Below, in pieces: positions 25,602 to 45,659 of a stretch of 64,000 nt of DNA. How positions within the stretch are numbered: the stretch's first letter is position 1; each line of letters opens with the position of its first letter. A model generated the notes under the pieces. That model searched no databases. It was given only the letters and a program-made list of their open reading frames with translations, and was not told the DNA's origin. The stretch lies in assembly GCF_054482595.1 (NCBI RefSeq), contig NZ_CM137008.1. The stretch is one strand, 5' to 3'. A program made the translations under genes and the position numbers.

Positions 25602-25621
25602 TTAGCGAGGCATTGATAGCT

Positions 25622-26800: not shown

Positions 26801-27381
26801 CCCTGGAAACCGCTTTTATGCTTCCCGTGCAGGATGCCCAGCACAGTTTTCGTCGCCTGTTAAAGGCCATGAGCGAGCCGGGCGTGATTGTCGCCCTGCA
26901 TCAGCTCAAACGCGGCTGGCAGCCGCTGAATATCGCCACCACCAGCGTGCTGCTGACGCTGGCCGATAACGACACGCCGGTGTGGCTTGCCGCGCCATTG
27001 AGCAACGATATCGTCAGCCAGAGCCTGCGTTTTCATACCAACGCGCCGCTGGTCAGCCAGCCGGAACAGGCGACCTTCGCGGTAACGGATGAGGCGATTT
27101 CCAGCGAACAGCTTAACGCCCTTTCCACCGGCACCGCCGTTGCGCCGGAAGCGGGCGCAACGCTGATTTTACAGGTCGCCAGCCTGAGCGGCGGGCGCAT
27201 GCTGCGTCTCACCGGCGCGGGTATTGCCGAAGAACGAATGATCGCCCCGCAGCTGCCGGAGTGCATTCTGCACGAACTCACCGAGCGCCCGCACCCGTTC
27301 CCGCTCGGCATCGACCTGATCCTGACCTGCGGCGAGCGCCTGCTGGCTGTTCCGCGAACCACTCATGTGGAGGTGTGCTGA
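26797..27381 (+). CDS. phnH: C-P lyase core complex subunit PhnH
   Basis: 194 aa; 4-bp overlap with phnG. Confidence 0.9.
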
Positions 27382-28445: not shown

Positions 28446-29283
28446 TCTGAGCGGCTACAACTTTGCCTACCTCGACGAGCAGACCAAACGCATGATCCGC
28501 CGCGCCATCTTAAAAGCGGTGGCAATCCCCGGTTATCAGGTGCCGTTTGGCGGGCGCGAGATGCCAATGCCGTACGGCTGGGGAACCGGCGGCATACAGC
28601 TCACCGCCAGCGTGATTGGCGAAAGCGACGTGTTGAAGGTGATTGACCAGGGCGCGGATGACACCACCAACGCCGTGTCGATCCGCAACTTCTTTAAGCG
28701 CGTGACCGGGGTGAATACCACCGAACGCACGGATGATGCGACGGTTATCCAGACGCGTCACCGCATCCCCGAAACGCCGCTGACCGAAGATCAGATAATT
28801 ATCTTCCAGGTGCCGATCCCCGAACCGCTGCGCTTTATCGAGCCGCGCGAAACGGAAACCCGCACCATGCACGCGCTGGAGGAGTACGGCGTGATGCAGG
28901 TGAAGCTGTATGAAGATATCGCCCGCTTCGGTCATATCGCCACCACCTACGCCTATCCGGTGAAGGTAAACGGGCGCTACGTAATGGACCCGTCGCCGAT
29001 CCCGAAATTTGATAACCCGAAAATGGACATGATGCCCGCCCTGCAACTGTTCGGCGCAGGGCGCGAAAAGCGCATCTATGCGGTGCCGCCGTTTACCCGC
29101 GTGGAAAGTCTCGATTTCGACGATCACCCGTTCACCGTTCAGCAGTGGGATGAGCCATGCGCCATCTGCGGAACGACCCACAGCTATCTTGATGAAGTGG
29201 TGCTGGATGACGCCGGAAACCGCATGTTTGTCTGCTCCGATACCGATTATTGCCGCCAACAGAGCGAGGCAAAAAGCCAATGA
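28438..29283 (+). CDS. phnJ: C-P lyase catalytic subunit PhnJ
   Basis: 281 aa from ATG at 28438 (MANLSGYNFAYLDEQTKRMIRR...); C-terminal cysteine cluster (CAICGTTHSYLDE...FVCSDTDYC). Confidence 0.9.
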   Translation: MANLSGYNFAYLDEQTKRMIRRAILKAVAIPGYQVPFGGREMPMPYGWGTGGIQLTASVIGESDVLKVIDQGADDTTNAVSIRNFFKRVTGVNTTERTDDATVIQTRHRIPETPLTEDQIIIFQVPIPEPLRFIEPRETETRTMHALEEYGVMQVKLYEDIARFGHIATTYAYPVKVNGRYVMDPSPIPKFDNPKMDMMPALQLFGAGREKRIYAVPPFTRVESLDFDDHPFTVQQWDEPCAICGTTHSYLDEVVLDDAGNRMFVCSDTDYCRQQSEAKSQ

Positions 29284-30038
29284 ATCAACCGTTACTTTCG
29301 GTCAATAACCTGACCCACCTTTACGCGCCGGGCAAAGGTTTTAGCGATGTCTCTTTTGATTTATGGCCGGGAGAAGTGCTGGGCATTGTCGGGGAATCCG
29401 GCTCCGGGAAGACCACGCTGCTGAAATCAATCTCCGCGCGTCTGACGCCGCAACTGGGGGAGATTCACTATGAAAACCGTTCCCTCTATGGCATGAGCGA
29501 GGCCGACCGCCGTCGCCTGCTGCGCACCGAATGGGGCGTAGTGCATCAGCATCCGCTCGACGGCCTGCGCCGCCAGGTGTCGGCAGGCGGCAATATCGGC
29601 GAGCGGCTGATGGCAACCGGGGCGCGTCATTACGGCGACATTCGCGCTACCGCGCAGAAGTGGCTGGAAGAGGTGGAAATTCCCGCCAACCGGATCGACG
29701 ACCTGCCGACCACCTTTTCCGGCGGTATGCAGCAGCGTTTGCAGATTGCCCGCAACCTGGTGACGCATCCGAAGCTGGTGTTTATGGACGAGCCAACCGG
29801 TGGGCTGGATGTGTCGGTGCAGGCGCGCCTGCTCGATCTGCTGCGCGGCCTGGTGGTGGAGCTGAACCTGGCGGTGGTGATTGTCACCCACGATTTAGGC
29901 GTCGCCCGCCTGCTGGCGGACCGTTTGCTGGTGATGAAGCAGGGGCAAGTGGTGGAGAGTGGGTTAACCGACCGCGTGCTCGACGACCCGCATCATCCGT
30001 ATACACAGCTGCTGGTGTCATCGGTTTTGCAGAATTGA
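29280..30038 (+). CDS. phnK: C-P lyase system ABC-type ATPase PhnK
   Basis: 252 aa from ATG at 29280 ([15 protein letters not shown]...); Walker [10 protein letters not shown]. Confidence 0.9.
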
Positions 30039-30039
30039 G

Positions 30040-30129
<90 letters not shown>

Positions 30130-30148
30130 CCGAACCACGAGGCGAAAA

Positions 30149-30829
30149 ATGATTAACGTACAAAACGTCAGTAAAACCTTCATCCTGCACCAGCAAAACG
30201 GCGTGCGCCTGCCCGTCCTCAACCGCGCCTCGCTCATCGTCAACGCGGGCGAATGCGTGGTGCTCCACGGCCATTCCGGCAGCGGAAAATCAACCCTGCT
30301 ACGCTCGCTGTACGCCAACTATCTGCCCGACGAAGGGCAAATCCAGATCAAACACGGCGACGAATGGGTCGATCTGGTCACCGCGCCAGCGCGCAAAGTG
30401 GTGGAGATCCGCAAAACCACCGTCGGCTGGGTGAGCCAGTTTCTGCGCGTCATCCCGCGTATTTCAGCACTGGAAGTGGTGATGCAGCCGCTGCTCGATA
30501 CCGGCGTACCGCGTGAAGCCTGCGCCGCTAAAGCCGCGCGTCTGCTCACCCGCCTGAACGTGCCGGAACGCCTGTGGCACCTGGCGCCATCGACCTTCTC
30601 CGGCGGCGAACAGCAGCGCGTCAACATCGCCCGCGGCTTTATCGTCGACTACCCCATTCTGCTGCTCGACGAACCTACCGCCTCGCTGGACGCTAAAAAC
30701 AGCGCCGCCGTAGTGGAACTGATCCGCGAAGCAAAAGCCCGTGGCGCGGCCATCGTCGGCATTTTCCATGACGAAGCCGTACGCAATGACGTCGCCGACC
30801 GCCTGCACCCAATGGGAGCCTCTGCATGA
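30149..30829 (+). CDS. phnL: C-P lyase system ABC-type ATPase PhnL
   Basis: 226 aa from ATG at 30149 ([15 protein letters not shown]...); Walker [10 protein letters not shown]. Confidence 0.9.
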
Positions 30830-31962
30830 TTATCAATAACGTCAAACTGGTGCTGGAAAACGAAGTGGTAAACGGTTCGCTGGAGATGCAGGACGGCGAA
30901 ATCCGCGCCTTTGCCGAAAGCCAGAGCCGCCTACCGGAGGCGATGGACGGCGAAGGCGGCTGGCTGCTGCCGGGGCTGATTGAGCTGCATACCGATAATC
31001 TGGATAAATTCTTCACCCCGCGCCCGAAAGTTGACTGGCCTGCCCACTCGGCGATGAGCAGCCACGACGCGCTGATGGTGGCGAGCGGCATCACCACCGT
31101 ACTGGACGCCGTGGCAATTGGCGACGTGCGCGACGGCGGCGATCGGCTGGAGAATCTGGAGAAGATGATCAACGCCATCGAAGAGACGCAGAAACGCGGC
31201 GTCAACCGCGCCGAGCACCGTCTGCATCTGCGCTGCGAACTGCCGCATCACACCACGCTGCCGCTGTTTGAAAAACTGGTGCAGCGCGAGCCGGTGACGC
31301 TGGTGTCGCTGATGGACCACTCACCGGGCCAGCGCCAGTTCGCCAACCGCGAGAAGTATCGCGAATATTATCAGGGCAAATACTCGCTCACCGACGCGCA
31401 GATGCAGCAGTATGAAGAGGAACAGCTGGCGCTTGCTGCACGCTGGTCGCAGCCAAATCGCGAATCCATCGCCGCAATGTGCCGCGCGCGACACATTGCG
31501 CTCGCCAGCCACGATGACGCCACCCACGCCCATGTTGCCGAATCCCACCAGCTTGGCAGCGTGATCGCCGAATTTCCCACTACGTTCGAAGCGGCGGAAG
31601 CCTCGCGCAAGCATGGCATGAACGTGCTGATGGGCGCGCCGAATATTGTGCGCGGCGGTTCGCACTCCGGCAACGTGGCGGCCAGTGAACTGGCGCAGCT
31701 TGGCCTGCTGGATATCCTCTCTTCCGACTACTACCCCGCCAGCCTGCTGGATGCGGCGTTCCGCGTCGCCGATGACGAGAGCAACCGCTTTACGCTGCCG
31801 CAGGCGGTGAAGCTGGTGACTAAAAATCCAGCGCAGGCGCTTAATCTCCAGGATCGCGGGGTGATTGGCGAGGGCAAACGCGCCGACCTGGTGCTGGCGC
31901 ATCGCAAGGGCAACCACATTCATATCGACCACGTCTGGCGTCAGGGTAAAAGGGTGTTCTGA
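30826..31962 (+). CDS. phnM: amidohydrolase-family phosphonate pathway enzyme PhnM
   Basis: 378 aa; 4-bp overlap with phnL. Confidence 0.9.
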
Positions 31963-32519
31963 TGACGGGAAAACTGATTTGGTTAATGGGGCCGTCCGGC
32001 TCCGGGAAAGATAGCCTGCTGGCGGAACTCCGCCTGCGGGAACAAACTCAGTTACTGGTGGCGCATCGCTACATCACGCGCGACGCCAGCGCTGGAAGCG
32101 AAAACCATATCGCCCTGAGCGAGCAGGAGTTTTTTACCCGCGCGGGGCAAAACCTACTGGCCTTAAGCTGGCACGCTAACGGTCTGTATTATGGCGTCGG
32201 CGTCGAGATCGACCTCTGGCTGCACGCCGGATTCGACGTGCTGGTCAACGGCTCACGCGCCCATCTGCCGCAGGCGCGGGCGCGCTATGCATCGGCGCTG
32301 CTGCCCATCTGCTTACAGGTGTCGCCGGAGATCCTGCGCCAGCGCCTGGAAAACCGTGGTCGTGAAAACGCCAGTGAAATTAACGCCCGGCTGGCGCGCG
32401 CTGCCCGCTATACTCCACAGGATTGCCATACGCTCAATAATGACGGCAGCCTGCGCCAGTCGGTCGACACGCTGCTGACGCTGATTCATCAGAAGGAGAA
32501 ACACCATGCCTGCTTGTGA
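31962..32519 (+). CDS. phnN: ribose 1,5-bisphosphate phosphokinase PhnN
   Basis: 185 aa; P-loop GPSGSGKDS; 1-bp overlap with phnM stop. Confidence 0.9.
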
Positions 32520-32940
32520 GCTTCGCCCGGCCACGCAGTACGACACCGACGCGGTTTACGCGCTGATTTGTGAGCTAAAACAGGCGGAGTTTGACCATCA
32601 CGCGTTTCGCGTGGGCTTTAACGCCAACCTGCGTGACCCAAACATGCGCTACCATCTGGCGCTGCTGGATGGCGAAGTTGTTGGCATGATCGGCCTGCAT
32701 TTGCAGTTTCATCTGCATCATGTCAACTGGATCGGCGAAATTCAGGAGCTGGTGGTGATGCCGCAGGCGCGCGGTCTGAACGTCGGCAGTAAGTTACTGG
32801 CGTGGGCAGAAGAAGAAGCCCGCCAGGCCGGGGCCGAAATGACCGAGCTTTCCACCAACGTGAAGCGCCACGACGCGCACCGTTTCTATCTGCGCGAAGG
32901 CTACGAGCAGAGCCATTTCCGCTTCACCAAGGCGCTGTAA
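32506..32940 (+). CDS. phnO: aminoalkylphosphonate N-acetyltransferase PhnO
   Basis: 144 aa GNAT-type; overlaps phnN 3' end. Confidence 0.88.
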
Positions 32941-32941
32941 C

Positions 32942-33700
32942 ATGAGCCTGACCCTCACGCTCACGGGCACCGGCGGCGCACAGGGCGTTCCGGCATGGGG
33001 CTGCGAGTGCGCGGCCTGCGCACGAGCGCGACGCTCGCCGCAGTATCGCCGCCAGCCGTGCAGCGGCGTAGTGAAGTTTAACGAGGCTGTCACCCTGATC
33101 GACGCCGGGCTGCACGATCTCACCGATCGCTGGTCGCCAGGATCGTTCCAGCAGTTTTTGCTGACGCATTATCATATGGATCACGTTCAGGGACTGTTTC
33201 CGCTGCGCTGGGGCGTGGGCGATTCGATCCCGGTCTACGGCCCGCCGGATGAACAGGGCTGCGACGATCTGTTTAAACATCCGGGCCTGCTTGATTTCAG
33301 CCACACGGTGGAACCGTTTGTGGTGTTCGATTTGCAGGGGTTGCAGGTGACACCGCTGCCGCTAAACCACTCAAAACTGACCTTCGGTTATCTGCTGGAA
33401 ACGGCACACAGCCGGGTGGCGTGGCTGTCTGACACCGCAGGCCTGCCGGAAAAAACGCTGAAATTTTTACACAATAATCAGCTACAGGTAATGGTGATTG
33501 ATTGCAGCCACCCGCCGCGCGAGGATGCACCGCGTAATCACTGTGATTTAAATACCGTGCTTGCGCTGAATCAGGTTATCCGCTCGCCACGGGTGATTCT
33601 GACCCATATCAGCCACCAGTTTGATGCGTGGCTGATGGAGAACGCGCTGCCGTCAGGGTTTGAGGCGGGGTTTGATGGGATGGAGATTGGGGTGGCGTGA
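32942..33700 (+). CDS. phnP: metallo-beta-lactamase-fold phosphodiesterase PhnP
   Basis: 252 aa; HxHxDH motif ([10 protein letters not shown]). Confidence 0.9.
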
Positions 33701-33732
33701 TGGGGGAGAATGTGCGCGCTGATGCCCTCATC

Positions 33733-33820
33733 CCGGCCCTCTCCCACAGGGAGAGGGAGAAAATCACCCCGTGCACCATCGGTCCCCTCGCCCCTTTGGG
33801 GAGAGGGTTAGGGTGAGGGG
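33733..33820. repeat. GC-rich palindromic intergenic element (family uncertain, possibly Box C-like)
   Basis: ccctctccc-aca-gggagaggg followed by cccctcgcccctttggggagagggttagggtgagggg between convergent phnP and yjdP. Confidence 0.5.
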
Positions 33821-33843
33821 CGATGCCAGCACCCGAGCCTACC

Positions 33844-34173
33844 TCACCGCCCATACTCATCTTCCATTCTCCGCTCTTCATCCTCCAGTTGCCGACGCTC
33901 CTGATCAAGCTGACGTTGGCGATCGTCCAGCTGCCTGCGGCGATCTTCAAACTGGCGGCGGCGGTCGTCATATTGTCTGCGCCGATCGTCGCTCACTTCA
34001 CGCTGCCAGCCGTCGTCGCGCGAATCTTCATAATCTCGCCCACGGTCAGGGTTATAAGCATCGTTAATCGCCTGCTGAATATTGCCAATGGTGTCGTCGA
34101 TAATATCGGCCTGGGCCGGTACGGTGGTCAGCGTGAGCAGGGTGAAAAAAAAGAGCGTGGAGTGGCGTTTCAT
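33844..34173 (-). CDS. yjdP: small secreted low-complexity protein YjdP
   Basis: 109 aa; N-terminal signal peptide; C-terminal DDRRRQ/ERRQ repeats; convergent with phnP as in K-12. Confidence 0.75.
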   Translation of the reverse strand: MKRHSTLFFFTLLTLTTVPAQADIIDDTIGNIQQAINDAYNPDRGRDYEDSRDDGWQREVSDDRRRQYDDRRRQFEDRRRQLDDRQRQLDQERRQLEDEERRMEDEYGR

Positions 34174-34241
34174 AAACTCGGCCTCGCAACAAAGTTAATA
34201 CAAGGTAGGCAAAGGTGCCTGTTACGAGTAGAGGAGGATTC

Positions 34242-36503
34242 TCAATTCTCTTGCCCCAGCGCCTGCGCCAACTGCGCACGGGTAAAGGGTTTGCGCAACA
34301 GCGCCACGTCTGGCAGCGCGGGGTTATGGCTGGGGCGTAAATCCTGACCGCTGATGAGTAGCAGCGTCAGGTGCGGGTAAAGTTTGCGGGCCGCATTGAC
34401 CACTTCTGCGCCGCTCATGCCGCCGGGGAGCATTAAATCGCTGATAAAAATATCGATTTCTGCTGATGCCGCCAGCAGATCCAGCGCCTGTTCGCCGCTG
34501 CTTGCTTCCAGCGTCAAATAGCCCAGCAGGTGCAACTGTTCGCAGATGGTCTGGCGCACCGCGGCTTCATCTTCCAGCACTAACACCAGTTTATCGCCGC
34601 TGACAGAAGCCTGTTCTACTGCCGCTGGCGATAGGTTTTTCGCCGCCGTCAGCGCGCGGGGAAGCTGTAATCTGACCGTTGTCCCCTGCCCCGGCGCGCT
34701 TTCAATTTCAACGCGCCCACCGGACTGGCGCACAAAACCATAGACCATCGACAAACCCAGCCCGCTGCCGCTGCCCGTCTGTTTGGTGGTAAAGAATGGC
34801 TCAAATACCTGGCTTTTCACCGCCTGCGACATACCGCTGCCATGATCGATGACCTCCAGTGCCACCATGTCCTGACGCTGCCCACTGCTGCGAGTAACGC
34901 GCTGATTCCAGGTACGAATTTTGATGATTCCCGTCTGCCCTTCCATCGCGTCACGGGCGTTCATCACCAGGTTGATGATGGCATTTTCCAGTTGGCTGAC
35001 GTCAATCCACGCGGGCCACGCCGGAGACTGCGCTTCAATCTCCAGCGCCAGCGTTGCCGGTAAGGAGTGGCGCATTAATTCGCTTAACTCTTCCAGCAAT
35101 GTTTTCAGTTCAACGGCTTGCGGATGTAAGGACTGCTTGCGGGAAAACGCCAGCAGTCGTTGTGTCAGTAGCGCCCCACGTTCGGCAGCTTGCAGCGCCC
35201 GCTGTATTCGCGGCGCGTCTGGCGAGTCCGGATTCACCAGCTCCAGGCTGCCAATAATCACCGCCAGCAGATTATTAAAATCATGGGCCAGCCCGCCCGT
35301 CAGTTGCCCGACCGCTTTCAGTTTCTGGCTGTGTAATAGCGCCTCTTCCAACCCCTGCCGCTCAGTTTGGGCAATCTCCATCTGCGTGGTCTTCTCTTTT
35401 AGCAGCCGTGAGGTTCGTTCGAGTGACTCGGTATTGCGGGCAAAAACGTTAAAGGCGCGCGCCAGTTCACCCAACTCATCACGCCGCTGTAACGCCGGAA
35501 AAGTGACGTCCGCTTCGCCGTACGCCAGGCGGCTCATGGCGCGGGAAATCGCCGTCAGGTTAGTGCCGAGGTTGCGATAGATATACCAGCCGGCAAACGC
35601 GGTGATCACCACCGCTAACAGGGCGAAAATCATGATCACCCTCTCGCCGGAGCGCAAATCCTGGTAACTTTGCGCCACGCGCTGACCGGAGAGCGTCGCC
35701 ACCTGTTCGGCGTAACGGTTGATGTCGCCATTGAGGATCGCCACCAGCGCTTTGATGTGAAACATATACCAGCTGATTGCCAGATCGCTTTGCTCCAGAG
35801 CGGCAGAAAGCGGCGCGAGTTTACGCATTTCATCATTGAAATCATTGAGTAACGTATTAACCAATGGCATATCGCTGTGGGTCGGCAACGCAGACATTAC
35901 CCCGACCAGTTGATGAATAATCGCCTGCGGCGCGGGGGTGGCAATAGCGGCAACAATCAGTCGGTTCATCTCGTTAAGCAAAATATCATCTTGCGCGTGA
36001 GTGACTTTTTGCAGATGCCGCAGATAACTTAAGTTTTGATACAGCGAACTTAACAGCGCGTTGCGCTCCAGATGCCGCCTTTGCCCGCGCTCCAGCATAC
36101 CGCCGACGCTGGTTTGCAGTTCGTTGCTACGCGTGATGATTCGCGTCACCAGCCCGGCTTCCTGCTGCGCTAAAGGCGCGTTCGCCAGTTGTGCAAGCGA
36201 GCTTTTTAATGCCCGCTGTGTCTCCTGCAACCGCTCGGCTTCGCCTTTATATTCCAGCGCTCCCACCACCTGCGACAATCGCACCGCCGCCGTTGCCACG
36301 TTTGCCGTGTCGCGCGCCAGATTCAGGCTGCCGGTCATATCATCCACCGTTTGCTGCTGCACCAGCTCCTGCATCTGGCTGGCATGACGAAAGCCCATTA
36401 CCGCCACGCCGCTGACCATCAACGTCACCGCCACCACCAGCAAATTCAAAAGCAGCAATCGCCCGCGCGCGCTGGCAAAAAAATGACGTCCGGGGTGCGC
36501 CAT
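34242..36503 (-). CDS. hybrid sensor histidine kinase (periplasmic sensor, HAMP, HisKA, HATPase, C-terminal receiver; no HPt domain)
   Basis: ~753 aa from ATG at 36503 (MAHPGRHFF...) with GGAG 8 nt upstream; two TM segments flank a ~300 aa periplasmic region; H-box GGLAHDFNNLL; G-boxes DHGSGM / GSGLGLSMV; receiver with ISDLMLPGG; protein ends ~25 aa after the receiver. Confidence 0.85.
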   Translation of the reverse strand: MAHPGRHFFASARGRLLLLNLLVVAVTLMVSGVAVMGFRHASQMQELVQQQTVDDMTGSLNLARDTANVATAAVRLSQVVGALEYKGEAERLQETQRALKSSLAQLANAPLAQQEAGLVTRIITRSNELQTSVGGMLERGQRRHLERNALLSSLYQNLSYLRHLQKVTHAQDDILLNEMNRLIVAAIATPAPQAIIHQLVGVMSALPTHSDMPLVNTLLNDFNDEMRKLAPLSAALEQSDLAISWYMFHIKALVAILNGDINRYAEQVATLSGQRVAQSYQDLRSGERVIMIFALLAVVITAFAGWYIYRNLGTNLTAISRAMSRLAYGEADVTFPALQRRDELGELARAFNVFARNTESLERTSRLLKEKTTQMEIAQTERQGLEEALLHSQKLKAVGQLTGGLAHDFNNLLAVIIGSLELVNPDSPDAPRIQRALQAAERGALLTQRLLAFSRKQSLHPQAVELKTLLEELSELMRHSLPATLALEIEAQSPAWPAWIDVSQLENAIINLVMNARDAMEGQTGIIKIRTWNQRVTRSSGQRQDMVALEVIDHGSGMSQAVKSQVFEPFFTTKQTGSGSGLGLSMVYGFVRQSGGRVEIESAPGQGTTVRLQLPRALTAAKNLSPAAVEQASVSGDKLVLVLEDEAAVRQTICEQLHLLGYLTLEASSGEQALDLLAASAEIDIFISDLMLPGGMSGAEVVNAARKLYPHLTLLLISGQDLRPSHNPALPDVALLRKPFTRAQLAQALGQEN

Positions 36504-36616
36504 ATCACGCTCCGTGAAGAAAAATCGCAATATGACAAATATGAACGGCTTCTGACATTTTGCATTTACTTTCCTGTGATGGAGTGCTGATATCGACAAC
36601 CTCGCAGGAGTCCACC
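36504..36616. promoter_or_regulatory. divergent promoter region between the sensor kinase gene and the ABC transporter operon
   Basis: 113-bp AT-rich spacer between divergent start codons; direct repeats tgacaaatatgaa (36533-36545) and tgacattttgcat (36553-36565) spaced 20 bp apart. Confidence 0.5.
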
Positions 36617-38137
36617 ATGAACAGCACGCCAGTTCTGGAGATGCGCAATATTGCCAAAGCCTTCGGCAAATTTTATGCACTCAAAGGGGTGGATTTGACG
36701 GTCTACCCTGGCGAGATCCATGCCCTGATGGGGGAAAACGGCGCGGGAAAAAGCACGCTGATGAAGGTGCTGGCGGGGGCGTATACCGCCACCAGCGGCG
36801 AGATCCTCATAGACGGCAAGCCCTTTCACATTCGCACGCCAAAAGATGCCTTAAGCGCCGGTATTACGCTGATTTATCAGGAGATGCAGCTGGCACCGAA
36901 TCTGTCGGTGGCAGAAAATATTTTTCTCGGCAGCGAGCTTTCCCACGGCGGGCTGGTGCAGCGTAAAGAGATGCTAGTGCAGGCGCAAAAAGTGATCGAC
37001 CGCCTCGGCGCGCAGTTTAACGCCAGCGATAAGGTCATGACGCTGACCATTGCCGAGCAACAGCAGGTCGAAATCGCCCGCGCACTACATCGCAACAGCC
37101 GCATTCTGGTGATGGACGAACCCACCGCTGCCCTCTCCTCCCGTGAAACTCACCGTCTGTTTGAACTGATTATGCGGCTGCGCGATGAAGGGATGGCGAT
37201 TATCTACATCAGCCACCGTATGGCGGAAGTGTATGAGCTTTCCGATCGCGTCAGCGTGCTGCGCGACGGGCAATACGTTGGCAGCCTGACCCGCGATAAC
37301 CTCAATGCCGGGGAGCTGGTGCGGATGATGGTCGGCAGGCCACTGAGCGATCTGTTCAATAAAGAGCGCGATATCCCGCTCGGTAAAGCCCGCCTGAATG
37401 TTCACCACCTGACCGACGGCGGCAAAGTCCAGCCGAGTAGCCTGCTGGTGCGTTCCGGCGAAATTGTTGGCCTCGCCGGACTGGTGGGTGCCGGACGTTC
37501 CGAACTGGCGCAGTTGATCTTCGGCGTGCGGAAAGCGACAGGCGGAATGATTGAAGTCGATGGTGAACCGGTGGTGATCCACTCCCCGCGCGAAGCCATC
37601 GATCTTGGCATTGGTTTTCTCACCGAAAACCGCAAAGAACAAGGCTTATTCCTTGAAATGGCAGCAGCCGAAAACATCACCATGGCAACCCTGGAGCGCG
37701 ATGCCCGCTGGGGAATGCTCAATCGCAAAAAAGCGCAAACCATTTCCGATGACGCCATTAAGTTGCTCAACATTCGCGTGCCTCACGCCCAGGTACGCGC
37801 GGGCGGGCTTTCCGGCGGCAATCAGCAAAAACTGTTGATCTCCCGCTGGGTGGCGATTGGCCCGCGCATTTTACTGCTCGATGAACCCACCCGCGGCGTG
37901 GACGTTGGCGCCAAAAGCGAGATCTACCGGATCATGAACGAGATGGCGCGCAAGGGCGTGGCGATCCTGATGATCTCCAGCGAACTGCCGGAGATAGTGG
38001 GAATGAGCGATCGCGTCTATGTGATGCGCGAAGGCAGCATTGCCGGTGAGTTAAACGGCAAAAACATCACCCAGGAAAACATTATGACCTTAGCGACTGG
38101 CGTCAACGACGCCCATTCCCAGGCGGTAACCTCATGA
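36617..38137 (+). CDS. sugar ABC transporter ATP-binding protein, tandem ABC domains (RbsA/CUT2-type)
   Basis: 506 aa from ATG at 36617 ([16 protein letters not shown]...) preceded by aggag; two Walker A motifs ([18 protein letters not shown]) and two signature motifs (LSGGNQQK in the second half). Confidence 0.88.
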
Positions 38138-39108
38138 CGACCTCTGCAAAAACCTCTGCCAAAAAAATGCTGATGAGCGATCTGATGCAAACGGTCGGCA
38201 TCTTGCCCATTTTGATTCTGATCGTGGCGGTATTTGGCTTTATCGCGCCAAACTTTTTTACCGAAAGCAACCTGCTGAATATTACCCGCCAGGCATCGAT
38301 CAACATTGTTCTGGCGGCGGGGATGACCTTCATCATTTTGACCGGCGGGATCGATCTTTCCGTGGGTTCGATCCTCGGCACCACAGCGGTGGCGGCGATG
38401 GTCGTCTCCCTTAGCCCTGAGTTCGCCATGCTGTCGATCCCGGCAGCGCTGATGCTCGGCCTGCTGCTGGGGCTGTTCAACGGCGCGCTGGTGGCCTTTG
38501 CCGGATTGCCACCGTTTATCGTCACGCTTGGCACCTATACGGCGCTGCGCGGGGCGGCGTATCTGCTGGCGGACGGCACCACGGTTATCAACTCCAACAT
38601 TAATTTCGAGTGGATAGGCAATAACTATCTCGGGCCGGTCCCGTGGCTGGTGGTGATTGCCCTCGCAGTGATTGTGCTGTGCTGGTTTATTCTGCGCCGC
38701 ACCACGCTTGGCGTTCATATCTACGCCGTCGGCGGCAATATGCAGGCGGCGCGTCTTACCGGCATTAAGGTCTGGCTGGTGCTGCTGTTTGTTTATGGTA
38801 TGAGCGGCCTGCTTTCTGGGCTTGGCGGGATTATGAGCGCCTCACGGCTGTACAGCGCCAACGGCAACTTAGGCATGGGTTACGAACTGGATGCCATTGC
38901 AGCGGTGATCCTCGGCGGCACCAGTTTTGTCGGCGGCATCGGCACCATCACCGGCACGCTGGTCGGCGCGCTAATTATCGCCACGCTCAACAATGGCATG
39001 ACCTTAATGGGCGTCTCTTACTTCTGGCAACTGGTGATCAAAGGGGCGGTGATCATCATTGCGGTGCTGATCGACAAATACCGTACCCGACACCATCAAA
39101 GTGCATAA
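38134..39108 (+). CDS. sugar ABC transporter permease (RbsC-like)
   Basis: 324 aa polytopic membrane protein; 4-bp ATGA overlap with the ATPase gene. Confidence 0.85.
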
Positions 39109-39126
39109 ACACATGAGGAATACAGC

Positions 39127-40068
39127 ATGAGATTGAAGCCCTTAGTGACCGCGCTCTATGCAGGCGCGCTGCTGACCGCAGCACCGTTCGCCCAGGCGAA
39201 AGAACTGAAATCGATAGGCGTAACGGTGGGCGATCTGGCGAACCCGTTCTTCGTGCAGATCACCAAAGGCGCGGAGCTGGAAGCACGCAAACTGGCAGGC
39301 GATAACGTCAAAGTGACGCTGGTTTCCAGCGGCTACGATCTGGGTCAGCAGGTGTCGCAGATAGACAACTTTATCGCCGCTAACGTCGATATGATTATCC
39401 TCAACGCTGCCGATTCAAAAGGGATCGGCCCAGCGGTGAAACGGGCGAAAGATGCCGGGATCGTAGTCGTCGCGGTTGACGTAGCGGCAGAAGGTGCTGA
39501 TGCCACCATCACCTCCGATAACACCCAGGCGGGCGAAATGGCCTGTAAATACATCACCGATCGCCTGAAAGGCAAAGGCAATGTGGTGATCATCAACGGC
39601 CCGCCGGTATCCGCCGTGCAAAACCGCGTCGAAGGATGCCAGACTGAATTTAAACGCCATCCTGACATCAAAGTGCTCTCTGACAACCAGAACGCGAAAG
39701 GCAGTCGTGAAGGCGGGCTGGAGGTAATGACGGGACTGCTGGCGGCAAATCCGAAGATCGACGGCGTATTTGCGATTAACGATCCCACCGCAATCGGTGC
39801 CGATCTGGCAGCAAAACAGGCGCAACGTAACGAGTTCTTTATTGTTGGTGTGGACGGAAGCCCGGACGCCGAAGAGGCGCTCAAGCGTGAGAACTCGTTG
39901 TTTGTCGCTACTCCGGCGCAAGATCCCCAGGTGATGGCAGCGAAAGCGGTGGAAATTGGCTACGACATTTTGCAGGGCAAACCTGCGCCGAAAGAGCCGG
40001 TGCTGATCCCGGTGACGATGATCGATAAAAACAACGTCGGCAATTACAAAGGCTGGACGGTGAAATAA
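39127..40068 (+). CDS. periplasmic sugar-binding protein (type I PBP, RbsB-like)
   Basis: 313 aa; signal peptide MRLKPLVTALYAGALLTAAPFAQA; RBS gagga upstream. Confidence 0.85.
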   Translation: MRLKPLVTALYAGALLTAAPFAQAKELKSIGVTVGDLANPFFVQITKGAELEARKLAGDNVKVTLVSSGYDLGQQVSQIDNFIAANVDMIILNAADSKGIGPAVKRAKDAGIVVVAVDVAAEGADATITSDNTQAGEMACKYITDRLKGKGNVVIINGPPVSAVQNRVEGCQTEFKRHPDIKVLSDNQNAKGSREGGLEVMTGLLAANPKIDGVFAINDPTAIGADLAAKQAQRNEFFIVGVDGSPDAEEALKRENSLFVATPAQDPQVMAAKAVEIGYDILQGKPAPKEPVLIPVTMIDKNNVGNYKGWTVK

Positions 40069-40122
40069 GTCCACACGCCGGGCGGCGCAGCTGCCCGGTC
40101 ACCGCTAAGGAGAACGCTTTCG

Positions 40123-40806
40123 ATGAAACGCTCCGCTATAAACGACATTCTCGGCCATACACGGCAATTCTTTTCGCAACATGACGTACATCTGCCGCCC
40201 TTTGCCAGTTTCTCGCCTGCTCAATGGCAGCAGCTCGACACCGCCGCGTGGGAGGAGGTTTTTGATCTTAAACTCGGCTGGGATGTTACCGCTTTTGGTC
40301 GCAACAACTTTGCAGCACACGGGCTGACGCTGTTTACCCTACGTAACGGCTCAGCAAAAGGAATGCCGTATGTGAAATGTTACGCCGAGAAGATCATGCA
40401 TGTGCGCGATGCGCAGGTCACGCCAATGCATTTTCACTGGCGTAAGCGTGAGGACATTATCAATCGCGGCGGCGGTAATTTAATTGTTGAACTGTGGAAT
40501 GCCGATAGTAACGAGCAAACGGCTGATAGTGACATTACGGTGGTGATCGACGGCTGCCGCCAGAAACATACTGCAGGCACTCAGTTGCGCCTGTCTCCCG
40601 GCGAAAGTATCTGCCTGCCGCCCGGCCTGTATCACAGCTTTTGGGCGGAAACCGGCTTTGGCGATGTTCTGGTTGGCGAAGTCTCTTCTGTCAATGACGA
40701 CGACCACGATAACCACTTTTTACAGCCACTGGACCGCTACAACCTGATTGACGAAGACGAACCTGCACAGTTGGTATTGTGTAACGAATACCGCCAGTTC
40801 CGCTGA
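40123..40806 (+). CDS. cupin-fold sugar isomerase, D-lyxose/D-mannose isomerase-like
   Basis: 227 aa; RBS aaggag; His-rich metal-site region (VTPMHFHWRKRE); length and context match my recollection of the characterised pathogenic E. coli D-lyxose isomerase family (not verified by search). Confidence 0.7.
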   Translation: MKRSAINDILGHTRQFFSQHDVHLPPFASFSPAQWQQLDTAAWEEVFDLKLGWDVTAFGRNNFAAHGLTLFTLRNGSAKGMPYVKCYAEKIMHVRDAQVTPMHFHWRKREDIINRGGGNLIVELWNADSNEQTADSDITVVIDGCRQKHTAGTQLRLSPGESICLPPGLYHSFWAETGFGDVLVGEVSSVNDDDHDNHFLQPLDRYNLIDEDEPAQLVLCNEYRQFR

Positions 40807-40820
40807 ATAAGGATAACGTT

Positions 40821-41681
40821 ATGCCATTGATTTCTCTCGCTGAAGGGCTGGCACATGCCCGCGAACATCACTATTCGTTAGGTGCGTTTAATGTGCTGGA
40901 CTCGCACTTTTTACGCGCCTTGTTTGCTGCTGCCAGACAAGAACGTTCGCCCTTTATTATCAACATTGCCGAAGTACATTTTAAATATATCTCGCTGGAT
41001 TCCCTGGTCGAGACAGTGAAATTTGAAGCGGCGCGTCATGCCATTCCGGTGGTGTTAAATCTCGATCACGGACTGCATTTTGAATCGGTGGTGCAAGCGT
41101 TGCGGCTGGGATTCAGCTCGGTAATGTTTGATGGCTCCACGCTGGGGTATGAAGAAAATGTCCGCCAGACGCGGGAAGTGGTGAAAATGTGCCATGCCGT
41201 TGGCGTATCGGTAGAAGCTGAACTGGGCGCGGTGGGTGGCGACGAAGGCGGTGCACTCTATGGCCATGCCGATGAATCCCTGTTTACCGATCCGCAACTG
41301 GCGCGTGATTTTGTCGACCGTACCGGCATTGACGCGTTGGCCGTGGCGATTGGCAATGCACACGGCAAATATCGCGGCGAACCGAAACTCGATTTCCCGC
41401 GCCTCGACGCTATCCGCCAGCAGGCTGCTATCCCGCTGGTATTACACGGCGGCTCAGGGATTAGCGATGCCGATTTCCGCCGCGCCATCGAACTGGGTAT
41501 CCACAAAATCAATTTCTACACTGGCATGTCGCAAGCGGCGCTGGCTGCCGTTGAGGCCCGAATGGCGTACCGTCAGCCGATGTATGACGAGTTTGCCGAG
41601 TTACTGCTGGCAGTGGAAGCCGCCATCAGCGATACGGTTGCACAACAGATGCGTATTTTTGGCAGTGCGGGGCAGGCATGA
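40821..41681 (+). CDS. class II ketose-bisphosphate aldolase family protein (GatY/KbaY/FbaA-like)
   Basis: 286 aa; alignable by eye with GatY (NLDHG, SVMFDGS, SVEAELG, ALAVAIGNAHG, LVLHGGSG motifs). Confidence 0.8.
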   Translation: MPLISLAEGLAHAREHHYSLGAFNVLDSHFLRALFAAARQERSPFIINIAEVHFKYISLDSLVETVKFEAARHAIPVVLNLDHGLHFESVVQALRLGFSSVMFDGSTLGYEENVRQTREVVKMCHAVGVSVEAELGAVGGDEGGALYGHADESLFTDPQLARDFVDRTGIDALAVAIGNAHGKYRGEPKLDFPRLDAIRQQAAIPLVLHGGSGISDADFRRAIELGIHKINFYTGMSQAALAAVEARMAYRQPMYDEFAELLLAVEAAISDTVAQQMRIFGSAGQA

Positions 41682-42679
41682 TGGAGCGTAAAGGAATTAT
41701 CGCCGCAGGCAATATGTTGGTTGACCACGTCCATCAGATTATCCAGTGGCCAGAGCGCGGCTGGCTGGCGGAGATCACCCACAGCGAACGCTCCACCGGC
41801 GGTGCGCCGCTTAACGTCCTGCTGACGCTGGCGAAAATGCGCACCGGGCTGCCGTTACAGGCGGTTGGGCTAATCGGTCAGGACAGCGACGGCGATTACA
41901 TCATGGCGATGCTTGAGCAATATCACGTCAATCGTCAGCATGTGCAGCGCACTACCTTTGCCCCGACGTCGATGTCGCAGGTGATGACAGACCCAAGCGG
42001 GCAGCGGACGTTTTTCCATTCGCCGGGTGCAAACAGACTTTTGGATCTTCCGGCGTTCGATCAGCTCGATAACACCATGAAGATTTTCCATCTCGGCTAT
42101 TTACTGTTGCTCGACAGCCTGGATATGCCGGACGATGTTTACGGCACCCGTAGCGCACGCCTGCTGGCGCAAATGCGTGATACTGGCTTTGAAACCTCAC
42201 TCGACCTGGTCTCCCGTAAGGGCGATCCGCGTTATCAGCCGCTGGTGCTGTCCGCGTTGCGCCATCTGGATTATCTGGTAATTAACGAACTGGAGGCCGG
42301 GGAGTTTAGCGGGCTGGAAATTCGGTTACCCAACGGCGAACCGCATATCGCGCATATTGCTGCCGCCGCGCGTGAACTGTTAGATGCGGGCGTGCGCCAG
42401 CGGGTGGTGATCCACTGCCCGGAAGGGGCGTGGGGAGAGACCCCAGAACAGGGCGGCGTGTGGATCCCTTCGCAAAAGTTAGAACAACGGGAAATTATCG
42501 GCAGCGTCGGCGCGGGCGATGCATTTTGTGCCGGATTTTTATATGGCTGCCATGAACGCTGGACGCTTACCGAGAGCATCAAACTGGCACACGCCTGCGC
42601 GCGGGCAAGCCTGTTATGCGCCAATGCCATCGACGGGGCGAAAACGCTGGAAGAGCTGCAAACAGAAATGTCGGATTAA
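41678..42679 (+). CDS. pfkB/ribokinase-family sugar kinase
   Basis: 333 aa; C-terminal GAGDAF motif (GSVGAGDAFCAGFLYG); 4-bp overlap with the aldolase gene. Confidence 0.8.
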   Translation: MMERKGIIAAGNMLVDHVHQIIQWPERGWLAEITHSERSTGGAPLNVLLTLAKMRTGLPLQAVGLIGQDSDGDYIMAMLEQYHVNRQHVQRTTFAPTSMSQVMTDPSGQRTFFHSPGANRLLDLPAFDQLDNTMKIFHLGYLLLLDSLDMPDDVYGTRSARLLAQMRDTGFETSLDLVSRKGDPRYQPLVLSALRHLDYLVINELEAGEFSGLEIRLPNGEPHIAHIAAAARELLDAGVRQRVVIHCPEGAWGETPEQGGVWIPSQKLEQREIIGSVGAGDAFCAGFLYGCHERWTLTESIKLAHACARASLLCANAIDGAKTLEELQTEMSD

Positions 42680-43383
42680 TGCACGTCGGCAGCGAAGACA
42701 TACCCCAGACCGCGCAGAGTTTTAATCAACATCGGCTGATGCGGGTTGAGTTCGATTTTGCGTCGTAAGCGCATGATTAATACGTCGATGGTGCGATCAA
42801 ACACCTCCACGCTGTCGCTGTGGGTGAACGCCAGCAACTGCTCGCGGCTCAATACCCGACGCGCGTTTTGCGCCAGAGCCAGTAACAAGCCATATTCGCC
42901 CTGAGTTAACTCGACATGTTGCTGAAGCGGATTGTGCAACTGGCAGCGCATGGTATCGAGATACCAGCCATTGAATGACAGCCCGGCGCTTTTCTCGTCA
43001 TTAACCGCCAGCGCACCAACCCGTCGCAACACCGCTTTCAGTCGTGCGACCACCACCCGCGGGGTGAACGGTTTGCAGATGTAATCATCCGCGCCCATTT
43101 CCAGCCCGACCACCACATCAGACTCACTGCCCATGCCGGTCAACATCACCACCGGCAATGTCGGACGCAGTTTCTGGATTTGCTGCAATACCCTCAGGCC
43201 GTTGGTATCGGGTAGCATCATATCCAGCACCACCAGCGCAATGTCAGGATCGCCCTCAATACGCAATATGGCCTCCTGTCCGGTATGGCAGACTGAAACC
43301 GTAAAGACATGTTCACTTAACACGTCCTGCAACAGTGCGCAGATAGCCGTGTCATCATCCACCACCAGCACGACGGGTTTCAT
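42676..43383 (-). CDS. OmpR/PhoB-family response regulator
   Basis: 235 aa from ATG at 43383 (MKPVVLVVDDD...) with GGAG upstream; the track ORF starts 6 codons earlier at 43401; receiver plus winged-helix (LRGLGYVF); 3' end overlaps the kinase gene stop convergently. Confidence 0.85.
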   Translation of the reverse strand: MKPVVLVVDDDTAICALLQDVLSEHVFTVSVCHTGQEAILRIEGDPDIALVVLDMMLPDTNGLRVLQQIQKLRPTLPVVMLTGMGSESDVVVGLEMGADDYICKPFTPRVVVARLKAVLRRVGALAVNDEKSAGLSFNGWYLDTMRCQLHNPLQQHVELTQGEYGLLLALAQNARRVLSREQLLAFTHSDSVEVFDRTIDVLIMRLRRKIELNPHQPMLIKTLRGLGYVFAADVH

Positions 43384-43673
43384 GGTTACACTCCGCATCA
43401 TTCATCTGATTAATCATTGTGCGTACTTCTTGTCGAAGTGAAAGCTGAAAGTAATATAAATAATAAAAATATAAGTCAGGTCACATTATTGATGATAGTA
43501 ATAAATATGCCGTACTTTTCCCTCTTCAGCACAAATGCCTAATAAAATGGATCGTTCCGCTCACACTTCCACTTATTAAAGTCGCAATTTCCCAATTATG
43601 ATAACGCCAGCTTTAAATGACGTATTTTGCATGGATTACATATTTACGACATAAATGATAAATGGAGATTTAT

Positions 43674-45659
43674 ATGAATAACTCTCGGTTATTCCGTTTG
43701 AGCAGGATTGTTATTGCGTTAACCGCCGTCAGCGGCATGATGGTAAATACCGCTAACGCGAAAGAGGAAGCGAAAGCCGCCACTCAATATACCCAACAGG
43801 TTAATCAGAATTACGCCAAATCATTACCGTTTAGCGATCGTCAGGATTTTGACGATGCCCAGCGTGGATTTATCGCCCCGCTGCTGGATGAAGGTATTCT
43901 GCGTGATGCGAACGGTAAAGTTTACTACCGCGCAGACGATTACAAATTTGATATTAATGCCGCTGCGCCGGAAACCGTAAACCCCAGCCTGTGGCGTCAG
44001 TCGCAGATCAACGGCATATCTGGCCTGTTCAAAGTCACCGATAAAATGTATCAGGTGCGCGGCCAGGATATCTCTAACATTACGTTCGTTGAGGGCGAGA
44101 AAGGCATTATTGTCATCGACCCGCTGGTGACGCCGCCTGCCGCAAAAGCCGCACTTGACCTTTACTTCCAGCATCGTCCGCAAAAACCGATTGTTGCCGT
44201 TATTTACACTCACAGCCACACTGACCACTATGGTGGCGTGAAAGGTATTATCTCTGAAGCCGATGTTAAATCCGGCAAAGTTCAGGTGATTGCCCCTGCT
44301 GGCTTTATGGACGAAGCCATCAGCGAAAACGTGCTGGCGGGTAACATCATGAGCCGCCGTGCGCTCTACTCTTACGGTCTGTTACTGCCGCACAACGCGC
44401 AAGGCAACGTGGGTAATGGCCTTGGCGTGACGCTGGCAACCGGCGACCCGAGCATTATTGCGCCAACCAAAACTATCGTCAGAACTGGCGAGAAGATGAT
44501 TATCGACGGCCTGGAGTTTGACTTCCTGATGACCCCAGGCAGCGAAGCCCCAGCCGAAATGCACTTCTATATTCCGGCCCTGAAAGCCCTGTGTACCGCC
44601 GAGAACGCCACGCATACCCTGCACAACTTCTACACTCTGCGCGGCGCGAAAACCCGCGATACCAGCAAGTGGACAGAGTACCTGAACGAAACGCTGGATA
44701 TGTGGGGTAACGACGCGGAAGTACTGTTTATGCCGCACACCTGGCCGGTCTGGGGCAATAAGCATATCAATGATTATATTGGTAAATATCGCGATACCAT
44801 CAAGTATATTCACGATCAAACCCTGCATCTGGCGAACCAGGGCTACACCATGAATGAAATCGGCGACATGATTAAGCTGCCGCCTGCGCTTGCCAATAAC
44901 TGGGCCAGCCGCGGTTATTACGGTTCTGTCAGCCACAACGCCCGCGCGGTGTATAACTTCTATCTTGGCTATTACGACGGTAACCCGGCTAACCTGCATC
45001 CGTATGGTCAGGTAGAGATGGGCAAACGTTACGTGAAAGCGCTGGGCGGTTCTGCCCGTGTCATCAACCTGGCGCAAGAAGCGAACAAGCAAGGTGATTA
45101 CCGCTGGTCGGCAGAACTGCTGAAACAGGTGATTGCCGCCAACCCGGGTGACCAGGTCGCGAAGAATCTGCAAGCGAATAACTTTGAACAGCTGGGCTAT
45201 CAGGCCGAGTCCGCCACATGGCGCGGTTTCTACCTGACCGGCGCGAAAGAGCTGCGCGAAGGGGTGCATAAGTTCAGCCACGGCACCACCGGTTCCCCGG
45301 ACACCATTCGCGGAATGTCGGTCGAAATGCTGTTCGACTTTATGTCCGTTCGCCTCGATAGCGAAAAAGCCGCGGGTAAAAATATCAGCCTGAACTTCAA
45401 TATGAGCAACGGCGATAACCTCAACCTGACGCTGAACGATAGCGTGCTTAACTACCGTAAAACGCTGCAATCCCAAGCTGACGCCTCTTTCTACATCAGT
45501 CGTGAAGATCTGCACGCCGTGCTGACCGGACAAGCCAAAATGGCGGATCTGGTAAAAGCGAAGAAAGCCAAAATTATTGGCAATGGTGCGAAACTGGAAG
45601 AAATTATTGCCTGTCTGGATAATTTCGATTTGTGGGTAAATATCGTAACCCCAAATTAA
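43674..45659 (+). CDS. yjcS: metallo-beta-lactamase-fold alkyl/aryl sulfatase
   Basis: 661 aa from ATG at 43674 ([21 protein letters not shown]...); signal peptide; HxHxDH motif ([10 protein letters not shown]). Confidence 0.85.

Follow-up and report, generated by a model that had tools for sequence, protein, structure and literature searches.

Isomerase, aldolase and kinase genes of Escherichia coli genomic island OI-167 and a possible mannose route through fructose 1-phosphate

The genes lmuI, lmuA and lmuK occupy positions 40123-42679 of a 64,000-nucleotide stretch of contig NZ_CM137008.1 (NCBI RefSeq assembly GCF_054482595.1), which is called the window below. They encode a cupin-type sugar isomerase, a class II aldolase and a pfkB-family kinase, and together they form the catabolic half of an operon, lmuXYZIAK, in genomic island OI-167 of Escherichia coli. 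Both the locus and a sketch of its pathway are already known. A first-pass annotation of this DNA treated the trio as an undescribed route; this does not hold, because the cluster was named and partly characterized in publications of 2010, 2022 and 2023. The annotation also raised a puzzle, namely how one kinase can serve an aldolase of the "bisphosphate" type, and this puzzle is addressed neither in PMC9860305 nor in PMC10128022. Judged from the sequences, there is an even chance that the genes form a mannose route in which LmuA cleaves fructose 1-phosphate.

In such a route the transporter LmuXYZ would import D-mannose, and also D-lyxose. LmuI would convert D-mannose to D-fructose (or D-lyxose to D-xylulose), LmuK would phosphorylate fructose, and LmuA would cleave the resulting fructose 1-phosphate to dihydroxyacetone phosphate (DHAP) and D-glyceraldehyde. 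C1 is the most likely site of phosphorylation, as suggested by the distal site of the aldolase and by the linkage of the two genes. D-Mannose would be the main physiological substrate, and D-xylulose produced from lyxose would go mainly to the xylulokinase of the host. The three genes are as follows.

40123-40806, plus strand: lmuI (Z5688, EcSI), cupin D-lyxose/D-mannose isomerase, 227 amino acids (PDB 3KMH/3MPB; NF051472)
40821-41681, plus strand: lmuA, class II metal-dependent aldolase, 286 amino acids (PF01116; NF005284)
41678-42679, plus strand: lmuK, pfkB-family sugar kinase, 333 amino acids (PF00294)

The trio as part of the lmu operon

All three are real genes, as had been predicted: the open reading frames are found at these positions and their family matches are far beyond chance. 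Profile searches likewise bear out the families that had been assigned by eye (isomerase NF051472, aldolase PF01116, kinase PF00294). The trio stands behind an ABC importer, with the genes of an ATPase, a permease and a binding protein upstream. Gene order, the yjdP/yjcS flanks and near-identical sequence identify the locus as the lmu operon of OI-167 (lmuXYZIAK with lmvK/lmvR). At the nucleotide level, the identity of the trio to annotated E. coli genomes, of O157:H7 and of other strains, is 99.4-99.9%, and to O157:H7 genomes specifically it is 99.4-99.5%.

The operon was described by Yang et al. (mBio 2023; PMC10128022) as lmvK-lmuXYZIAK-lmvR, where lmu stands for lyxose/mannose utilization and the products include a kinase, an aldolase, an isomerase and a transporter. 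The six genes lmuKAIZYX are co-transcribed as one unit and are induced by mannose and lyxose through LmvK/LmvR (PMC10128022). According to the legend of Fig. 3A in that paper, an aldose is imported, converted to a ketose by LmuI, phosphorylated by LmuK and cleaved by LmuA. The general scheme of the first-pass annotation, from aldose to ketose to ketose phosphate to aldol cleavage, is the same as this published model. The scheme of Yang et al. is repeated in a 2024 review (PMC11644481), and no subsequent biochemical study turned up in the literature that was searched for the lmu gene names. It is reported that growth on lyxose requires oxygen and is hurt by deleting lmuI or lmuZYX, and that lmuK and lmuA are dispensable for it (PMC10128022). 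When LmvR is overexpressed in a delta-manA strain, growth on mannose depends on the presence of lmuKAIZYX (PMC10128022).

LmuI is identical at 225 of 227 positions to the "D-lyxose isomerase" (Z5688) of PDB 3KMH/3MPB (E=4e-160), the two differences being S153T and A177T. It also passes the NCBIfam model for D-lyxose/D-mannose isomerase, NF051472, with 438 bits (cutoff 350), and is thus a D-lyxose/D-mannose isomerase of the cupin type (EC 5.3.1.15). His103, His105, Glu110 and His171, which we take to be the metal ligands of the 2010 cupin structure, are all present. The O157 protein is reported to interconvert D-mannose with D-fructose, and also D-lyxose with D-xylulose. Its ratio of kcat/Km for mannose over lyxose is 0.75, the second highest among eight isomerases tabulated (PMC6746899), and few of the characterized isomerases are less biased toward lyxose. 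Its affinity for mannose is low, with a Km of 19.8 mM (quoted in PMC10128022).

The active site of LmuA and its link with LmuK

The first-pass annotation argued that, with ABC import and a single kinase, a bisphosphate substrate for the aldolase is hard to build from these genes. This count of phosphates is sound. Neither a second pfkB kinase nor a second class II aldolase is found in the 64-kb window. LmuA itself matches Pfam PF01116 (E=1.4e-91) and, with 575 bits against a cutoff of 406, the NCBIfam model NF005284, which is named "ketose 1,6-bisphosphate aldolase". LmuA was aligned with YdjI and GatY of E. coli, four fructose-bisphosphate aldolases (FBAs) of Bacillus and Staphylococcus, and SqiA, an aldolase for sulfofructose phosphate. 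Its identity is 36% to GatY, 38% to YdjI, 39% to SqiA and 41% to the FBAs of Bacillus and S. aureus. In the alignment LmuA retains the catalytic residue D82, the metal ligands H83, E134, H181 and H209, and S212 and T234 of the DHAP-phosphate pocket; the roles of these residues in catalysis, zinc binding and DHAP-phosphate binding are taken from the description of SqiA (PMC10665668). Together with the Pfam match, these residues place LmuA in the class II metal-dependent aldolase superfamily.

In class II FBP aldolases, that is, those acting on fructose 1,6-bisphosphate (FBP), the distal 6-phosphate is held by Ser49, Arg259 and, from the partner subunit, Arg280 (Helicobacter pylori numbering); the Arg280 position is Ala257 in SqiA (PMC10665668). 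By alignment, the equivalent of Arg280 is the arginine of a "DPR" motif that all four FBAs and GatY possess. At this position LmuA has Phe258/Ala259, and its residues 253-275 include no lysine or arginine. The equivalent of Ser49 is Ser/Thr50 in the FBAs and GatY and Ala50 in LmuA. The DPR arginine is also absent from YdjI and SqiA, the two enzymes in the PF01116 comparison that cleave monophosphates. Measured by Ser49 and Arg280 as distal-phosphate ligands, with Arg259 left unmapped, LmuA falls outside the strict FBP and tagatose-bisphosphate aldolases. Because both equivalents are lost, distal binding in LmuA is probably non-canonical, which argues that it does not hold a distal phosphate in the manner of these enzymes. 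The earlier idea of a ketose 1-phosphate substrate is strengthened, since the aldolase lacks the distal-phosphate Ser and Arg and keeps the catalytic and DHAP-phosphate residues; the example chosen for it, xylulose 1-phosphate, is weakened, as described below.

LmuA had also been taken for an aldolase of the GatY/KbaY type, which in E. coli normally needs a GatZ/KbaZ partner. That no such partner is encoded is correct for the 64-kb window (best tblastn E=0.22). The assignment to this subfamily fails, because the identity is 36% to GatY and 41% to Bacillus FBAs, and the GatY, KbaY and tagatose-bisphosphate aldolase models score 186-257 bits on LmuA, below their cutoffs of 383-543. The possibility that LmuA is a GatY/KbaY aldolase with a missing partner was rejected on both grounds.

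LmuK matches Pfam PF00294 (E=2.7e-36). Across an alignment of 36 family members, G41-G42, N203, E206, G278, G280 and D281 do not vary, and with its GG, NxxE and GAGD (278-281, including the catalytic Asp) motifs LmuK belongs to the pfkB/ribokinase family. It reaches the curated equivalog cutoff of no known pfkB subfamily. The best NCBIfam scores are 74 bits for IolC (cutoff 300), 69 for ribokinase (300) and 52 for 1-phosphofructokinase (292); those for fructokinase (NF006957) and tagatose kinase are 46 (450) and 25 (420). Solved relatives are remote, the sulfofructose kinase YihV being the best PDB match (2e-10), followed by ribokinases, fructokinases and YdjH. Reading the regiochemistry of the kinase from its sequence was abandoned, as YihV, ribokinase, fructokinase, YdjH and ketohexokinase match weakly and about equally. 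It is reported that purified LmuK consumes ATP with fructose, that is, it has fructose kinase activity, and the text of the same paper mentions no kinase activity on xylulose (PMC10128022).

A search of 1.84 billion cluster representatives with LmuK gave 315 related clusters at E<=1e-30, and neighboring genes were compared in 80 genomic loci, together with the above alignment of 36 members. In the enterobacterial relatives (Citrobacter, Pseudescherichia, Enterobacter and Pantoea) the island is complete, with its two-component system. Among the 74 non-enterobacterial loci, a class II aldolase adjoins the LmuK-like kinase in 18 and a cupin isomerase is present in 16. The full trio is found in Bacteroidales and Clostridia (loci L013, L019, L024, L027, L035, L068, L074 and L082). 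In four of the 74 (L051, L077, L066 and L067, from Pedobacter, Flexithrix, Rhizobiaceae and Verrucomicrobiales), the genes directly upstream of the kinase are those of a class I aldolase of the DhnA type and of a Gfo/Idh/MocA oxidoreductase. A short cupin isomerase gene lies between these genes and the kinase in L051 (7442-11005), L077 (7198-10930) and L066 (7327-11026). Here the DhnA-type aldolase, which is not homologous to the class II enzyme, takes its place.

The linked class II aldolases resemble LmuA at the distal site. All 24 of those examined in Bacteroidales, Clostridia and Enterobacteria have Ala50 and lack the DPR arginine, and in a neighbor-joining tree (without support values) the linked aldolases group with LmuA, apart from the FBAs, GatY, SqiA and YdjI. 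That an aldolase is kept with the kinase, and is even swapped for an unrelated one, suggests that the kinase product would be a ketose 1-phosphate and not fructose 6-phosphate; there would be little reason for a dedicated aldolase step if fructose 6-phosphate were formed. A weaker hint comes from genes for a GlpK-like kinase and a YghZ-type aldo-keto reductase near some loci, which fit a glyceraldehyde/glycerol branch for the disposal of glyceraldehyde.

The sugar itself is suggested by the Bacteroidales loci L013, L017, L031 and L068, where the homologs of LmuK, LmuA and LmuI lie among genes of GH92 alpha-mannosidases (TIGR01180, 713 bits). This context points to D-mannose as the natural sugar of the module. 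For the E. coli operon, mannose is favored because of these GH92 loci, the isomerase ratio of 0.75, and the likeness of LmuXYZ to the mannose ABC system of Herbaspirillum, to which it is about 60% identical (PMC10128022).

In Clostridia, the gene position behind the kinase is taken either by the aldolase or by a pair of Gfo/Idh/MocA and mannitol-1-phosphate-dehydrogenase-like genes. Both occur together in none of the 74 loci, an exclusion that is not significant by itself. In metagenome-assembled genomes (MAGs) of gut Clostridia, the kinases of L016, L038 and L058 on the one hand and of L046, L057 and L071 on the other are preceded by AraC, PIG-L-type deacetylase and NagB-like genes, and behind them stands either an LmuA-like aldolase gene or the above pair, in no case both. 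These loci suggest a route from an amino sugar to the same phospho-ketose, which then has two alternative fates.

Two marine alphaproteobacterial loci (L079 3797-10278 and L080 4805-15978) have homologs of LmuI and LmuK together with a GlpK-like kinase and an ABC importer. They also encode a YghZ-type aldo-keto reductase (458 bits, cutoff 448), a FucU-like mutarotase and a 2-hydroxyacid dehydrogenase. A conserved protein of 330 amino acids in these loci (c79) was considered as a further aldolase and was not counted, as it has no Pfam match and only a weak LsrF-like match.

Competing routes

Several points weigh against cleavage of fructose 1-phosphate by LmuA. FruK, PfkA/PfkB and FbaA of E. 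coli could complete a bisphosphate route. The loss of the Ser49 and Arg280 equivalents indicates non-canonical distal binding and is no proof that the distal group is neutral: SqiA binds an anionic sulfonate at the same place through backbone amides of positions 51/52 (PMC10665668). The third ligand, Arg259, could not be mapped onto LmuA. The name of the matching NCBIfam model and the 41% identity to genuine FBAs also speak for a bisphosphate. No assay of LmuA was found in the literature searched, and the published assay of LmuK measured the formation of ADP and not the position that is phosphorylated (PMC10128022). The comparison across phyla covers 80 loci, of which many are contigs of MAGs, with open reading frames called by a simple script. 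Finally, lmuKAIZYX adds little to growth on mannose or to colonization of the mouse in comparison with manA (PMC10128022).

In one competing route LmuK would be a fructose 6-kinase whose product is converted to FBP by PfkA/PfkB of the host, with LmuA a spare FBP aldolase that travels with the island. This would be the simplest entry into glycolysis, it agrees with the fructose kinase activity of LmuK (PMC10128022), and it takes the equivalog name of NF005284 (575 bits) and the resemblance to Bacillus and S. aureus FBAs at face value. We consider it unlikely, though it deserves to be taken seriously. LmuA and all of the kinase-linked homologs have other residues in place of the distal-phosphate ligands, and LmuK is far from the fructokinases of the ScrK/CscK type, whose model NF006957 it matches with roughly a tenth of the required score. 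It would also be surprising if a redundant FBA remained linked with this kinase in Bacteroidales, Clostridia and Enterobacteria, or if a class I enzyme took its place at the same position.

A mixed route, which seems improbable, would start with fructose 1-phosphate made by LmuK; FruK of the host would convert it to FBP, and LmuA or FbaA would cleave the FBP. This corresponds to the alternative offered in the first-pass annotation, where kinase and aldolase work with host enzymes on a hexose. FruK is an established enzyme of the fructose phosphotransferase system (PTS) pathway of E. coli, so that the argument from a single kinase is respected. The dispensability of LmuA on lyxose is compatible with this route (PMC10128022). 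However, it demands a bisphosphate-cleaving site where the ligands of the distal phosphate have been replaced, both in LmuA and in its kinase-linked homologs, and the preservation of the module in Bacteroidales and Clostridia suggests a self-contained pair of kinase and aldolase.

It is just as improbable that the physiological function is the one offered as an example in the first-pass annotation, where D-lyxose is converted to D-xylulose and xylulose 1-phosphate, and the latter is cleaved to DHAP and glycolaldehyde. LmuI slightly prefers D-lyxose (PMC6746899), lyxose induces the operon, and the operon is needed for growth on lyxose (PMC10128022). The need for oxygen on lyxose would fit an oxidation of glycolaldehyde, and xylulose 1-phosphate has the same 3S,4R configuration as fructose 1-phosphate, so LmuA might on chemical grounds accept both. 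The example is weakened by the finding that lmuK and lmuA themselves are dispensable on lyxose and by a kinase activity that was demonstrated on fructose and is not reported for xylulose (PMC10128022). In addition, D-lyxose is rare in nature, and the module sits with mannosidases in other phyla.

Even less probable is a different natural substrate, either another manno-configured sugar such as D-rhamnose, D-glycero-D-manno-heptose or D-talose, or a sulfo- or uronic sugar, for which mannose and lyxose would be gratuitous stand-ins. The high Km of LmuI for mannose and the weak mannose phenotypes (PMC10128022) would be accounted for, and related PF01116 aldolases do act on sulfofructose 1-phosphate and on an octuluronate 1-phosphate. 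Induction by mannose and lyxose (PMC10128022) and the GH92 context speak against it. For sulfosugars in particular, no sulfoquinovosidase, sulfolactaldehyde enzyme or exporter is encoded in the island, and the sulfo-EMP2 clusters of SqiA use an unrelated PF02952 isomerase, although some hybrid clusters use a pfkB kinase (PF00294) (PMC10665668). The reading of LmuA as SqiA-type and LmuK as YihV-like was rejected, because the likeness is at the family level (39% identity; E=2e-10), the island has no sulfo genes, and the sulfo-EMP2 cluster has other isomerase and kinase families.

If LmuK does make fructose 1-phosphate and LmuA does cleave it, the operon would provide a dedicated mannose/fructose route that is independent of the PTS and bypasses phosphofructokinase. 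The puzzle of the single kinase would be explained, the label "ketose 1,6-bisphosphate aldolase" of NF005284 would be wrong for this family, and the modules of gut Bacteroidales and Clostridia would need re-annotation. In a wider proposal, to which we give somewhat less than an even chance, LmuK and LmuA would represent a widespread and so far unrecognized bacterial branch through fructose 1-phosphate, resembling the "fructolysis" of ketohexokinase and aldolase B and fed by a cupin mannose isomerase. Its hosts would be gut Bacteroidales, where it lies beside GH92 genes, gut Clostridia, and plant- or gut-associated Enterobacteria. As a further part of this proposal, the Gfo/Idh/MocA and MtlD-like pair of Clostridia could convert fructose 1-phosphate to fructose 6-phosphate by way of the symmetric mannitol 1-phosphate. 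It is a speculation, based on what is established for Cra, that in enterohemorrhagic E. coli (EHEC) fructose 1-phosphate derived from mucus mannose could act on Cra and so link metabolism to virulence control. What is of value beyond the published record is the question of the kinase product, fructose 1-phosphate or fructose 6-phosphate, and of the substrate of LmuA, in a module that is widespread in gut bacteria beside mannosidases.

Related systems and the surroundings of the trio

Several known pathways follow a similar logic. YdjH/YdjI of E. coli, which act on L-glycero-L-galacto-octuluronate, are likewise a pfkB kinase and a PF01116 aldolase that cleaves a ketose 1-monophosphate, and YdjI too lacks the DPR arginine. 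They are distant relatives (YdjI is 38% identical to LmuA; YdjH matches LmuK with E=7.5e-8), neither a cupin isomerase nor an ABC importer belongs to the ydj cluster, and the substrate is an acidic eight-carbon sugar, unlike that of lmu. In the sulfo-EMP (sulfo-Embden-Meyerhof-Parnas) pathways (YihS/YihV/YihT; SqiA, PDB 8Q57-8Q5A), there is the same order of isomerase, ketose 1-kinase and ketose-1-phosphate aldolase yielding DHAP and an aldehyde. SqiA shares with LmuA the PF01116 family, with Ala at the distal Arg position and 39% identity, and YihV is the weak best PDB match of LmuK (2e-10). The isomerases are PF07221 or PF02952 instead of cupin proteins, however, and the sulfo genes are absent from the island.

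In the myo-inositol pathway, IolB (a cupin-type isomerase), IolC (pfkB) and IolJ (PF01116) isomerize the substrate, phosphorylate the CH2OH that adjoins the keto group and cleave the product to DHAP and an aldehyde. The three-step logic is the same, two of the three protein families are shared, and IolC is the top NCBIfam match of LmuK. The differences are that this match reaches 74 bits where 300 are required, that the substrate is a deoxy-keto acid, and that no other iol genes are present. FucI/K/A (L-fucose), RhaA/B/D (L-rhamnose) and, formally, mammalian ketohexokinase with aldolase B also proceed through a ketose 1-phosphate to DHAP and a C2/C3 aldehyde, after an isomerase step in the bacterial pathways, and ketohexokinase is a pfkB-family enzyme with a weak match to LmuK (2.5e-4). 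In these routes, however, FucK and RhaB are FGGY kinases, FucA and RhaD are PF00596 aldolases, aldolase B is a class I enzyme, and the sugars have other configurations.

The other features of the island are listed below.

34242-36503, minus strand: lmvK / rbfS (Z5692), hybrid sensor histidine kinase with receiver domain, TorS/VirA-like (open reading frame; NCBIfam hybrid kinase, TorS and VirA-like matches)
36504-36616, no strand: divergent lmvK/lmuX intergenic region, which holds the lmuX promoter (read from the sequence)
36617-38137, plus strand: lmuX, sugar ABC transporter ATPase (NCBIfam AraG/XylG/RbsA-like, all below cutoff; RefSeq annotation)
38134-39108, plus strand: lmuY, ABC transporter permease (NCBIfam RbsC-like; 4-nucleotide overlap with lmuX)
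39127-40068, plus strand: lmuZ, periplasmic sugar-binding protein of the RbsB family (PDB 4RWE, E=3.6e-167; NCBIfam RbsB-like, below cutoff)
42676-43383, minus strand: lmvR / rbfR (Z5684), OmpR/PhoB-family response regulator (open reading frame; RefSeq start; NCBIfam OmpR/VirG/TorR-like)

The first-pass annotation described the trio as translationally coupled. This is true for the aldolase and the kinase, where the stop of lmuA and the start of lmuK overlap as ATGA, and within the trio region strict overlap is limited to this pair; the remaining genes are closely spaced. lmuI and lmuA are separated by 14 nucleotides with AAGGA before the ATG of lmuA, and lmuZ and lmuI by a spacer of 54 nucleotides with AAGGAG ahead of the lmuI ATG. 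The spacer has a GC-rich inverted repeat, CCGGGC...GCCCGG, at 40071-40099 without a T run, which may form an mRNA-stabilizing or attenuating hairpin that sets the ratio of transporter to enzymes. A promoter and terminator scan of 34000-43800 gave no more sites than shuffled sequence and nothing informative within the trio. lmuK and lmvR are convergent with a 4-bp overlap (42676-42679), and no terminator-like site above chance is found between them.

LmuZ is almost identical to PDB 4RWE, a "sugar-binding transport protein". The start of lmvK read from the sequence is the ATG at 36503, in agreement with the RefSeq annotation of its orthologue; the longest mechanical open reading frame extends to 36680 and overlaps lmuX, and this is probably not the real start. 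LmvR protects -41 to -62 of the lmuX promoter in DNase I footprinting (PMC10128022). LmvK is TorS/VirA-like and LmuZ has a weak TorT match in NCBIfam; by analogy with TorT-TorS or ChvE-VirA, LmvK may sense sugar through the binding protein LmuZ. Note that the word "periplasmic" is absent from the main text of PMC9860305 and PMC10128022.

The same two-component system has two published names and signals. Liu et al. (PNAS 2022; PMC9860305) called the kinase and regulator at its two ends RbfS (Z5692) and RbfR (Z5684) and reported that it responds to riboflavin and activates ler, while LmvKR responds to mannose and lyxose. The words sugar, isomerase and ABC transporter are absent from the text of PMC9860305. 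A role in riboflavin breakdown, which the rbfSR name might suggest, was rejected, as no gene content fits it and PMC9860305 is silent on the sugar genes.

The window is E. coli chromosome, with phnP-yjdP, the island and yjcS-ytcA-mdtNOP-fdhF in the order of the RefSeq annotation of O157:H7 TW14359. In K-12, the same yjdP-yjcS site has alsRBACEK-rpiB, for the use of D-allose (window 33844-43662 versus 8871-15800 of K-12 locus L084), so that one ABC cassette for a rare sugar stands in place of another. Yang et al. already described this exchange of the allose genes for the island (PMC10128022). The als operon shares with lmu this slot, an RbsB-type ABC importer and enzymes for a rare sugar, but it encodes a kinase, a 3-epimerase and a phosphosugar isomerase without an aldolase, and a repressor instead of a two-component system.

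Compared with the lmu/lmv (rbf) island of O157:H7, the copy in the window has the same locus, gene order and flanks, and differs in its allele and in a sensor kinase gene that is 9 bp shorter: lmvK is 2262 nucleotides here and 2271 in O157:H7 TW14359, an in-frame difference. The island is described as essentially limited to EHEC O157:H7, O145 and O55 (PMC9860305, PMC10128022). At least 80% of it is present in 410 of 5426 genomes. Over its whole length (34242-43401) it reaches 100.0% identity with other E. coli genomes, and this is the case in at least 15 complete genomes without an O157:H7 label. These are 4.7-5.2 Mb in size and come from human, chicken, pig and duck sources (O157:H16 Santai and APEC37 among them). 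The window thus has the allele that is found at 100% in strains not labelled O157:H7.

The G+C content is 0.60-0.63 at 24001-34000 of the window and 0.46-0.57 elsewhere in it. By synteny with TW14359, phnM-phnP, which are phn (carbon-phosphorus lyase) genes, lie within the G+C-rich stretch.

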